This document shows, in pieces, positions 17,932-18,443 of a DNA stretch of 64,000 nt (positions are counted from its first letter, which is position 1; each line of letters opens with the position of its first letter). The notes under the pieces are model-generated. The model did no database searches. It saw only the letters and a list, made by a program, of their open reading frames with translations, and was not told where the DNA came from. The stretch is from a virus. Its lineage: Duplodnaviria > Heunggongvirae > Uroviricota > Caudoviricetes > Straboviridae. The stretch is taken from the IMG/VR virus record IMGVR_UViG_638277085_000001, positions 163,399-227,398 of that record; one strand, 5' to 3'. The position numbers were made by a program, and so were the translations under genes.

Positions 17932-18054
17932 AGTTGCGGGTGCAGGATTCGAACCTACATCACGATCTTATGAATGATATGCGAAATTGATTGCCGTACA
18001 GATTCTTATCAGAATCAGTTTTGTGCTACGTGTGCTACCACTTACACCAACCCG
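17932..18054 (-). ncRNA. Elongated tRNA-like RNA (about 123 nt) with a 12-bp terminal helix, D-arm and T-arm, and the internal hairpin GATTC-TGATAA-GAATC. It is a paralogue of 18321..18443.
   Basis: Terminal inverted repeat atagttgcgggt/acccgcaactat. D-arm GTGT-AAGTGGTA-GCAC. T-arm GTAGG TTCGAAT CCTGC. No anticodon arm could be assigned. Confidence 0.45.
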
Positions 18055-18131
18055 CAACTATATGCTTTCGGGATGCTTACGCAGGTTCTTCTCTACGTAA
18101 GCACAGATCCTCAATGTATATTTTGCCTTAG

Positions 18132-18320
18132 CTAATCACAACACAACCCAATATCGTGCGCTTTAATTACGGGATTGATGACCCGTTCGCATGTGATTAG
18201 CGTAAAAGTATGATTACGCACCTTTTCTTCTTCAATGTCCAAGGCAAAGAGGACTATGAATACCAGTGCGAGAAGATATACAATCAAATTGCTCACCTCG
18301 CTTAATAAGTGAGAGTACAT
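18132..18320 (-). CDS. Small hydrophobic (membrane-like) hypothetical protein (start at MYSHLLSEV; the longer track ORF overlaps the tRNA-like gene)
   Basis: 62-aa ORF with a LIVYLLALVFIVLFAL segment. Confidence 0.3.
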   Translation of the reverse strand: MYSHLLSEVSNLIVYLLALVFIVLFALDIEEEKVRNHTFTLITCERVINPVIKAHDIGLCCD

Positions 18321-18443
18321 TGGTCGAGTGTAACGGAATCGAACCGTTCCCACGATCTCCCTATGATATGCGTAAATTGGTTGCTGAATATAATCATGTC
18401 TGATTACAGTATGCTACGTGTGCTGCCACTACACCAACACTCG
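18321..18443 (-). ncRNA. Elongated tRNA-like RNA (120 nt + CCA), paralogue of 17932..18054. It has a 14-bp terminal inverted repeat including the CCA, D-arm GTGT-AGTGGCA-GCAC, T-arm AACGG TTCGATT CCGTT and internal hairpin TAATC-AGACAT-GATTA.
   Basis: The two RNAs align along most of their length (TGGTGTA.GTGG.AGCACACGTAGCA...CAATTT.CGCATATCAT...AGATCGTG). Confidence 0.45.

Follow-up and report, generated by a model that had tools for sequence, protein, structure and literature searches.

A paralogous pair of tRNA-shaped non-coding RNAs in Vibrio phage KVP40, probable Y-RNA-type partners of a Ro60-like phage protein

Background

Ro60 genes are usually accompanied by adjacent Y RNAs that mimic tRNA (PMC4201824). 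Among phages, Thermus phage phiLo encodes a Ro60 to which two adjacent Y-like RNAs and the PNPase of the host bind (PMC12135203), and gp130 of phage Bas63, a Ro60-like protein encoded upstream of tRNA genes, counters the Ppl defence; some of the 'tRNAs' of that phage have been suggested to be Y RNAs (PMC11482910). Phage T4 produces the small RNAs C and D, whose function is unknown (PMC3014915). Here we describe two related elements, E4 and E5, in the tRNA cluster of Vibrio phage KVP40, within a window of 64,000 nucleotides (nt) that spans positions 163,399 to 227,398 of IMG/VR record IMGVR_UViG_638277085_000001. E4 and E5 are very probably functional, structured non-coding RNAs, and we consider them likely partners, of the Y-RNA type, for a Ro60-like protein of the same phage, KVP40.0300.

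That tRNA-mimicking Y RNAs and phage homologues of Ro60 exist is already known, and in one preprint some of the 'tRNAs' beside a Ro60-like gene of a Felixounavirus are conjectured to be Y RNAs. In the accessible literature we found neither the E4/E5 family of RNAs nor its tRNA topology without permutation described, and likewise no mention of the permuted pair of topologies reported below or of an identity with the 'pseudo-tRNAs' of KVP40.

Results

The window is 100% identical to the KVP40 genome (AY283928/NC_005083), and a window position equals the record position minus 163398. Its tRNA genes lie throughout on the minus strand, and 28 of them are called by ARAGORN under default settings. 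E4 and E5 have no annotation in KVP40 and are labelled 'tRNA-OTHER' in phage phi-pp2. An earlier note on this DNA, made from the sequence alone, had placed them at 17932-18054 and 18321-18443; the elements are real, and both proved to be longer than that. Their parts are listed here, R1 being a covariance model that we built.

E4: about 17922..18069, minus strand; tRNA-shaped non-coding RNA with D and T arms, a terminal helix of 20 base pairs (bp) and a domain that takes the position of the anticodon arm; R1 match 17921-18065, 141.5 bits; orthologues in 11 phages
E5: about 18311..18457, minus strand; paralogue of E4; R1 match 18310-18453, 140.4 bits
E4 hairpin A: 18001..18016, minus strand; GAUUC-UGAUAA-GAAUC, the stem of which covaries
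E5 hairpin A: 18389..18408, minus strand; UGUAAUC-AGACAU-GAUUAUA, equivalent to the end-bearing terminal stem of permuted relatives
E4 junction and hairpin B block: 17961..17996, minus strand; CGGCAAUC...GCAUAUCAU...AGAUCGUG, invariant alignment columns
E5 junction and hairpin B block: 18351..18388, minus strand; UUCAGCAAC...GCAUAUCAU...AGAUCGUG, invariant alignment columns
Terminator-like hairpin: 18292..18313, minus strand; directly 3' of E5

The two RNAs are paralogous, as the note had proposed: BLASTN aligns one with the other (77.5% over 80 nt, E = 3e-9), and each of the 11 related phages examined shows the same cross-match. The sequence blocks that they were said to share are all present, and most are invariant in an alignment of 15 sequences of E4 and E5 orthologues, namely UUGGUGUAGUGG..AGCACACGUAGCA, (U)UCAGCAAYC, GCAUAUCAU, AGAUCGUG and the T arm. 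The two hairpin loops, UGAUAA in E4 and AGACAU in E5, are also as described there.

The consensus fold of the 15 orthologues, obtained with MAFFT and RNAalifold, consists of an extended terminal helix with the acceptor, a D arm, a short helix (GUAGC/GCAAC), hairpin A, hairpin B and a T arm. The D and T arms (UUGGUGU-AGUGGCA-GCAC and AACGG-UUCGAUU-CCGUU) possess the nucleotides of a tRNA elbow, including U8, A14, G18G19 and the T-loop UUCRANY, and the T stem covaries. A conserved domain of about 65 nt substitutes for the anticodon arm. The terminal helix does extend beyond the 7 bp of an acceptor and does include the CCA of E5, as noted earlier, but its lengths had been underestimated at 12 and 14 bp. 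E4 has 20 contiguous pairs (GAAAGCAUAUAGUUGCGGGU/ACCCGCAACUAUAUGUUUUU), the 3' strand continuing into a U-tract, and E5 has 21 (GAGAGUAUAUUGGUCGAGUGU/ACACUCGACCAAUGUACUCUC), within which the discriminator A and the encoded CCA are buried. Neither RNA therefore has a 7-bp acceptor with a free discriminator and 3' end, since the helix pairs the discriminator, and in E5 also the CCA, with the 5' leader. In the remaining tRNA and tRNA-like genes of the window the terminal helix has 7-9 bp, the one further exception being tRNA-His with its interrupted extension. A duplex that buries these nucleotides seems to need processing, and it is possible that E4 and E5 are substrates of RNase III or RNase P, as was suggested in the earlier note.

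Compensatory changes were found in 19 of the 43 pairs of the consensus fold among the 15 sequences (for example AUAGUUGCGGGU/ACCCGCAACUAU, AUUGAUGCGGGU/ACCCGCAUCAAU and AUUGAGCAGGGU/ACCCUGCUCAAU), the terminal-helix pairs with such changes being 16-18. In an alignment made with R1 (36 matches, 32 distinct sequences), 37 of the 43 pairs had changed on both sides, standard pairs occupied 95.6% of the cells as against 33-44% with slid partners, and the covariation score was 0.569 as against at most 0.105 in controls; the observed pairing and covariation values were attained in none of 500 shuffles. These statistics favour the model because the alignment was fitted to it, and the independent fold from MAFFT and RNAalifold agrees with the R1 result. 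The G-U pairs of the terminal helix are found only in the minus-strand reading, and the helix therefore exists in the RNA. Within the group E5 shows the highest conservation, with 98-100% identity in VH7D, phi-ST2, V09, ValKK3, nt-1 and QD01, where the surrounding 650 nt are only 86-90% identical.

Hairpin A of E4 and E5 has 6-7 bp, a loop of 6 nt (or 4 nt) and conserved spacers on either side. In the R1 alignment all six pairs of the E4 hairpin changed on both sides, with 98.9% of cells paired. The loop follows the form U-GNNA-A (variants UGAUAA, UGUUAA, UGACAA and UGUAUA), the two middle bases being free to vary, and its closing bases covary between U..A and A..U (pair 57-62). The resulting tetraloops are GAUA, GUUA, GACA and GUAU, with GCAA, GAAA and GCGA in distant relatives. 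We read this loop, from its pattern of variation, as a tetraloop cap rather than as an anticodon mimic; a reading as an anticodon mimic in an arms race is unnecessary, as the covarying U-A/A-U closing leaves a tetraloop of the GNNA type.

Several other features surround the two RNAs. Upstream of E5, at about 18620-18810 on the minus strand, there are three similar stem-loops (for example CUCAUCG...GAUGAG and UUCAUCG...GAUGAA), preceded by two sigma-70-like promoters (18844-18817 and 18752-18725). Between E5 and E4, at about 18132-18290 on the minus strand, lies an open reading frame (ORF) of about 50 amino acids with an invariant hydrophobic N-terminus (LIVYLLALVFIVLFALD) and a divergent C-terminus; the frame is kept across 11 phages and may encode a small membrane peptide. 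The annotated start of KVP40.0319 falls inside E5 and is probably wrong.

No Rfam family, small self-cleaving ribozymes included, matched E4 or E5 at E <= 10, and the E4/E5 family is not part of Rfam 15. The canonical tRNA model (RF00005, gathering threshold 29 bits) was among those without a match even at this level, and ARAGORN in its default mode calls neither element. The earlier note had found no anticodon arm to place. Indeed, neither RNA contains a 5-bp anticodon stem with a 7-nt loop, no single excision restores such a stem, and removal of the insert leaves only a 2-bp CG/CG remnant. In its intron mode ARAGORN calls five long elements in the window, E4 and E5 among them, with arbitrary anticodons (cac, tca). 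The other three were found as additional long matches (113-121 nt) of the Rfam tRNA model, each with an insertion of 45-54 nt in the anticodon loop.

E1, annotated as 'tRNA-Pseudo-3' in KVP40: 15906..16018, minus strand; Rfam tRNA 49.8 bits with a 54-nt insertion; R1 44.5 bits
E2, annotated as 'tRNA-Pseudo-4': 17572..17692, minus strand; Rfam tRNA 55.5 bits with a 49-nt insertion
E3, annotated as 'tRNA-Pseudo-5': 17703..17815, minus strand; Rfam tRNA 51.9 bits with a 45-nt insertion; R1 26.6 bits

These three reach 50-55 bits with RF00005 only by skipping the insertion. The relationship of E4 and E5 to them, already suspected in the note, resides in a module common to all five, which consists of hairpin A (5-7 bp, U-GNNA-A loop) followed by AUUC(A/U)GCA. 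The tRNA body of E1 contains it as hairpin A with a CCAGCA motif (module regular expression, or regex), that of E2 as hairpin A with a UGACAA loop followed by AUGCUGCAA (orthologue alignment), and that of E3 as hairpin A with a UGAUAA loop followed by AUUCUGCA (orthologue alignment and module regex).

Formal membership of the YrlA family (RF02553, gathering threshold 69 bits) fails, because this model gives no match on E4 or E5; elsewhere its matches are weak, with 23.4 bits on the second unit at locus L089 and 39.3 bits beside the DUF2828 gene of mycobacteriophage Lumos (L numbers designate loci and contigs of our searches). Its sole match in the window (29.8 bits) bridges the junction of E3 and E2 and is a known artefact of dimeric tRNAs. 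The permuted order that defines YrlA (5' strand of the stem, T arm, closed acceptor, D arm, 3' strand of the stem) is absent from E4 and E5, which have ordinary tRNA order. Homology to T4 RNAs C and D was not detected either: at the T4 locus R1 gives only tRNA-Arg and weak tRNA matches, the folds differ, and the module regex has no match in the T4 region examined. The same regex had no match in 679 kb of background viral DNA. In one genome per bacterial species the module pattern gave 41 matches, about the chance number estimated from pattern and database size, and R1 confirmed none of them.

The protein that we propose as the partner of these RNAs is encoded in the same window, across the tRNA cluster.

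KVP40.0300: 4885..6321, minus strand; DUF2828 and DUF7788 by Pfam, 'RNA-binding protein' by PHROG; proposed partner of E4 and E5

The gene lies about 11.6 kb from E4 and E5, and its relative position is the same in all related Vibrio phages. An AlphaFold2 model of the protein (predicted local distance difference test 79, predicted template modelling score 0.76) contains a ring of HEAT-like repeats and a C-terminal vWA domain, the arrangement of Ro60/TROVE proteins. When this model was compared with the Protein Data Bank (PDB) by Foldseek, the top nine matches were all Ro60/TROVE-domain entries, aligned over the full length with template modelling (TM) scores of 0.47-0.60; the best was Xenopus Ro (1yvr, E = 2.4e-7, TM 0.58), and the Ro60 of phage phiLo (9l5y) was also among the matches. 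Pfam finds no TROVE domain in the protein (DUF2828 and DUF7788 are found instead), and a search of the PDB by sequence only does not return Ro60. Our search recovered more than 7,800 proteins of the DUF2828 family, which occurs in about 700 phage records; a literature search for DUF2828 returned only unrelated plant and animal papers. No other Y-like or YrlA-like RNA adjoining the KVP40.0300 gene was found.

KVP40.0300 is flanked by genes for an RNase-H-like DUF458 protein and for a cyclic-phosphate-processing receiver (cREC) protein, at 4310-4840 and 7408-7764 on the minus strand, and these flanks point to a neighbourhood of RNA repair or RNA-end processing. A neighbour of E4 and E5, the gene annotated as '57B RNA ligase' (19108-19563, minus strand), matches Pfam Acb1, an anti-CBASS 2H phosphodiesterase (E = 1.7e-46), so that the label 'RNA ligase' is misleading; a link of E4 and E5 to an RNA ligase was dropped for this reason. 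The protein-RNA anti-CRISPR AcrIIIA1 was likewise considered and set aside, its protein being unrelated.

With the RNA motif as the starting point, homologues came to light in at least eight further phage lineages, with 11 of 13 loci situated within about 1 kb of a DUF2828/DUF7788 gene and on its strand. Three true loci were obtained when IMG/VR (viral_contigs) was scanned with an E4/E5-specific pattern (GCATATCAT...AGATCGT) and filtered by R1: VH7D, L063 and L089, the last two of which, not of the KVP40 type, both adjoin a DUF2828/DUF7788 gene. The L063 RNA (R1, 92 bits) has its own promoter (TTGACA-17-TATAGT) and is followed, 60 nt downstream, by an ORF with DUF2828 and DUF7788, with no tRNAs nearby, and the L089 RNA starts at the stop codon of such an ORF. 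Metagenome contigs, scanned with a stricter two-gap pattern, gave 34 loci; R1 confirmed 11 of them (about seven lineages), and none of 17 chance loci tested scored. For nine of these 11 RNAs a Ro-like gene is encoded on the same strand at a distance of 39-939 nt, and the remaining two stand at the ends of truncated contigs. The junction/hairpin B motif of E4 and E5 thus recurs in unrelated contigs (L063, L089) and in metagenomes. Copies in tRNA order stand upstream of the Ro-like gene (L063, L243/L247/L253, L263), and the other metagenomic copies stand downstream of it (L255, L256, L259, L262, L271).

The module shared by E1-E5 also occurs in long tRNA-like genes of other phages. Cronobacter phage S13 has two copies in long tRNA-like genes about 490 nt downstream of its DUF2828 gene, and module-bearing tRNA-like genes occur 660 nt upstream (L153) and 235 nt downstream (L177) of a DUF2828 gene; further loci found from the RNA are L188, L189/L194, L193, L195 and L196. 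BLASTN of the metagenomic homologues L189 and L195 against cultured phages gave no match.

The downstream copies, with L089 among them, are circular permutations of E4 and E5, with their ends in hairpin A and a closed acceptor. The L089 RNA begins with one strand of helix A (UGGAUCA), followed by UUACAGCAAC, GCAUAUCAU, AGAUCGUGG and the T arm, and continues through the closed acceptor hairpin (GUGCCCC-A-CCA...UGGGGCAU), the D arm, ACGUAGCA and the other strand of helix A (UGAUCCA), which goes on beyond a bulge. When this RNA was re-permuted in silico, identities were 86/120 with E5, 93/123 with E4 and 94/120 with L063, and alignment scores were 110-151; shuffles scored 48 +/- 7, and the RNA in its native order 48-52.

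Among close relatives of KVP40, one phage provides a natural loss. In TCU-VP03-AIR1 (L238), which is 99% identical to KVP40 around E5, a GIY-YIG homing-endonuclease gene (1774-2427) exactly replaces E2, E3 and E4 (window 17570-18060), and E1 and E5 are retained. E2-E4 are dispensable in this phage, because they are replaced there while E1 and E5 are kept. This replacement en bloc is the only loss seen that bears on empty sites. The endonuclease gene resembles segB in the tRNA cluster of T4, and the phage offers a natural deletion strain.

Extended terminal helices were also seen on other RNAs. The tRNA-His(GUG) of KVP40 (10717-10793, minus strand) has a leader/trailer terminal helix of about 20 bp with one mismatch (AAGUGUACUUUGG.../...CCAAAGUGCAUUU), and a tRNA-His on an unrelated DUF2828-bearing contig (L184, 3094-3169) has nearly the same extension, which may relate to G-1 processing; such extensions are otherwise rare (2 of 212 tRNAs). 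In other DUF2828-bearing phages, a tRNA-Gly(UCC) (L135, 5065-5158) and a tRNA-Ser-like RNA with the anticodon loop CUUGAAA (L164, 7375-7487) have terminal helices of 17-21 bp followed by a U-run, and the extension in L135 (UAUAUUGAG/CUCAAUAUA) hardly differs from the one on E4 in phages of the VH7D type. Listeria phage LP-124 (L106, 536-1087) contains a match to the ROOL RNA of 87.4 bits, near the gathering threshold of 99.1, about 1 kb upstream of its DUF2828 gene, with an RtcB ligase gene about 1.3 kb downstream of the DUF2828 gene. Two further tRNAs were seen: one at 12186-12257 of the window (minus strand), recognized by Rfam (44.9 bits) and unreported by ARAGORN, and one with a CUA anticodon in L089 (3568-3643), labelled 'Pyl' by ARAGORN, which is a possible amber suppressor.

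Discussion

E4 and E5 are most likely partners of the Ro60-like protein KVP40.0300, because their RNA family adjoins a Ro60-like gene in other phages; by analogy with the known Ro60 systems, we regard this reading as probable. Linkage to a Ro60-type gene, a feature of the Y-RNA class, is thus seen for the RNA family, and in KVP40 the gene lies in the same window.

From the observed structure, conservation, genomic linkage, predicted Ro60-like fold and permutation, one may propose a model of binding, processing and biological effect. Each RNA combines an extended terminal helix with a tRNA elbow, made of the D and T arms, and carries in the place of the anticodon arm a conserved domain with the short helix, hairpin A and its U-GNNA-A loop, the invariant junction UUCAGCAAC/GCAUAUCAU/AGAUCGUG and hairpin B. 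KVP40.0300 would bind hairpin A and the adjacent junction, which correspond to the end-bearing stem of the permuted relatives, as in Y RNAs. The tRNA-like body and the long terminal helix may serve stability, processing of the tRNA type or by RNase III, and contacts with enzymes such as PNPase. According to this model the resulting ribonucleoprotein (RNP) could, in the infected cell, influence the decay of host RNA, the repair of RNA or a defence system. The terminal helix may double in termination, as that of E4 leads into a U-tract and that of E5 to a terminator hairpin. We infer these steps from the analogies with Ro60, Y RNA and PNPase, with the Ro60-Yrl-PNPase complex of phiLo (PMC12135203) and with Bas63 gp130 acting against Ppl (PMC11482910).

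Several observations weigh against a partnership with KVP40.0300. In KVP40 and its relatives the RNAs do not adjoin the Ro-like gene but are separated from it by about 12-16 kb, and TCU-VP03-AIR1 is a viable close relative without E2-E4. When loci were chosen through the protein, an R1 match within 4 kb was found in only 7 of 80 DUF2828 loci; the RNA is therefore one of several types of partner, or some of the proteins have none. The same 80 loci contain 212 tRNAs (in 24 of them), as compared with three tRNAs, in 3 loci, among 77 background loci, and some of the co-location of the RNA with DUF2828 could reflect a shared 'RNA island', because DUF2828 genes often adjoin tRNA clusters. The RF02553 model is silent on E4 and E5 and weak or silent on the permuted relatives, and the YrlA motif GNCGAAN0-1G is absent from E4 and E5 outside the T loop; the 5' strand of L089 reads CUAACGAAUAUUGG, and hence does contain CGAA.

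One rival holds that E4 and E5 are tRNA-scaffolded RNAs independent of the Ro-like protein, the two sharing only an RNA-repair island. Such RNAs could be decoys or inhibitors of a host nuclease that targets tRNAs, or of RNase P, RNase III or PNPase, or could punctuate the processing and termination of the tRNA operon. The entry of the E4 helix into a U-tract and the terminator hairpin after E5 would fit, as would the extended helices on canonical tRNA-His and tRNA-Gly in such phages, the general clustering of DUF2828 genes with tRNAs and the 12 kb that separate RNAs and gene in KVP40. Against it stand L063, where no tRNAs are nearby and one promoter precedes both the Ro-like gene and the RNA in its leader, the nine of 11 metagenomic loci, found from the RNA, that lie less than 1 kb from the gene on the same strand, and the Y-RNA topology of the permuted forms. 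Hairpin A is moreover a poor anticodon mimic, because its loop has 6 nt or 4 nt. We judge this explanation unlikely, although it deserves more weight than the remaining three, which would make E4 and E5 introns, pseudogenes or mobile DNA. If they were intron-containing tRNAs, a decoding tRNA would arise once an insert of 45-65 nt had been cut out through the action of some unknown endonuclease and ligase. The Rfam tRNA model does span E1-E3 with a single anticodon-loop insertion, ARAGORN in intron mode calls all five elements, annotations of the tRNAscan type assign anticodons, and CCA is encoded by E1, E2 and E5. Yet excision from E4 or E5 never yields a 5-bp stem with a 7-nt loop, the assigned anticodons disagree between tools and between orthologues, the insert is constrained in sequence and structure, unlike short introns removed by proteins, and the permuted relatives make no sense as introns, so that this possibility is very improbable.

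Decay is the explanation implied by the original annotation of E1-E3 as 'tRNA-Pseudo-3/4/5' and is compatible with 'tRNA-OTHER' for E4 and E5 in phi-pp2: the elements would be functionless tRNA genes disabled by insertions in the anticodon loop. The set of elements indeed varies, E2 being absent from nt-1 and QD01, E3 from the D482 group, and E2-E4 being replaced in TCU-VP03. However, the inserted domain is the best-conserved part and has invariant motifs, compensatory changes occur in all helices, so that covariation strongly disfavours decay, E5 is better conserved than its own flanks, and the same domain recurs in unrelated phages, also in permuted form; we regard decay as highly improbable. 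The earlier note had offered the ends of a small mobile insertion as an alternative, and remnants of an element inserted into tRNA genes, such as a miniature inverted-repeat transposable element (MITE), might be imagined from the presence of the same hairpin and AUUCNGCA module in five different tRNA bodies and from the homing endonuclease active in this region of a relative. This suggestion is not supported by comparison with the relatives, in all of which the positions are syntenic: no target-site duplication, no empty site for a single element and no copy at a non-homologous site was seen, nor was the module found alone, flanked by repeats, at sites outside tRNAs. The module was also missing from the background viral DNA and from bacterial genomes, and the covariation of the terminal 'inverted repeat' is that of an RNA, G-U pairs being confined to one strand. 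A mobile origin is thus extremely improbable. Taken together, the sequence comparisons indicate that E4 and E5 are not decoding tRNAs, decayed pseudogenes, intron-bearing tRNAs or mobile insertions.

We return to the reading of E4 and E5 as partners of KVP40.0300. Since 2003 the five long 'tRNAs' of KVP40 have counted as pseudogenes or lacked an annotation; the comparisons show that these elements, above all E4 and E5, are structured RNAs under selection. E4 and E5 are tied to DUF2828, a very large family that resembles Ro60 and of which one member is reported to counter a bacterial defence, and the binding and role of a phage Ro60-like protein become testable questions in a culturable T4-type phage with defined RNA candidates. 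Elements of the E1-E5 type also mislead the annotation of tRNAs, the same gene receiving different anticodons in different phages.

The pair of topologies bears on the origin of Y RNAs from tRNAs. With some hesitation, and at somewhat below an even chance, one may speculate that there is a single RNA architecture in two circularly permuted topologies, and that these phages harbour a living intermediate series for tRNA-mimicking Y RNAs that arose from tRNA genes. Y RNAs would then derive from tRNA genes through tandem duplication and subsequent trimming. The same speculation would imply a Ro60-like/Y-RNA RNP that is widespread in tRNA-rich phages and counters RNA-targeting by the host or other defences, with the 'pseudo-tRNAs' of the KVP40 type as its RNA subunits. 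The tRNA order, with ends at the extended acceptor as in E4, E5 and L063, would be the form upstream of the gene in L063, L263 and L243, and the Y order would be the form downstream.

Comparison with known systems

Like YrlA (RF02553; Chen et al. 2014, PMC4201824), E4 and E5 mimic tRNA, have canonical D and T arms and belong to a family linked to a Ro60-type gene. The permuted relatives resemble it more closely: their ends lie in a stem (bulged in L089), a loop closes the acceptor, and the T arm comes ahead of the D arm. Their acceptor loop starts with a discriminator and CCA, which recalls the YrlA of M. smegmatis, cut by RNase P and provided with CCA. E4 and E5 themselves differ in that they end at the acceptor and the putative protein-binding stem is capped as hairpin A; they also do not have the GNCGAAN0-1G motif, the candidate partner is a DUF2828/DUF7788 protein rather than a Pfam TROVE protein, and in KVP40 the genes are 12 kb apart. 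The order of E4 and E5 is also that of Yrn1 of Deinococcus radiodurans (PMC4201824), compared here by description only, whose ends form a long stem on the acceptor side and whose 'anticodon arm', between the D-like and T arms, has a 5-bp stem and a loop of 6 nt, the same odd size as in hairpin A. In Yrn1, however, the Ro site is in the terminal stem, whereas the conserved elements of E4 and E5 surround hairpin A, and Yrn1 has no long hairpin B domain.

Phages phiLo, with its RNAs Yrl1 and Yrl2, and Bas63 share with KVP40 a Ro60-like protein together with small RNAs or 'tRNA' genes, which are adjacent in the first two, and the proposed roles against the host are attenuation of PNPase in phiLo and countering of Ppl in Bas63. 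In contrast to E4 and E5, the Yrls of phiLo are not tRNA-shaped but have a simple stem-bulge-stem form and a CGAA motif; the partner RNAs of Bas63 are conjectured only, and neither study (PMC12135203, PMC11482910) describes the E4/E5 architecture. RNAs C and D of T4 (species 1 and 2) are, like E4 and E5, small stable non-tRNA RNAs of a T4-type tRNA cluster, in the syntenic 3-1-57A-57B-tRNA region, and rnaC has a tRNA-like T arm, but they lie at the far end of the cluster and have no detectable homology to E4 and E5. In engineered 'tRNA scaffold' RNAs a foreign RNA is set into the anticodon stem of a tRNA. E4 and E5 resemble these in that a tRNA body would provide folding, processing and resistance to nucleases while a functional module replaces the anticodon arm; unlike the engineered scaffolds, they are natural, conserved and paralogous, and have in addition an extended terminal helix.

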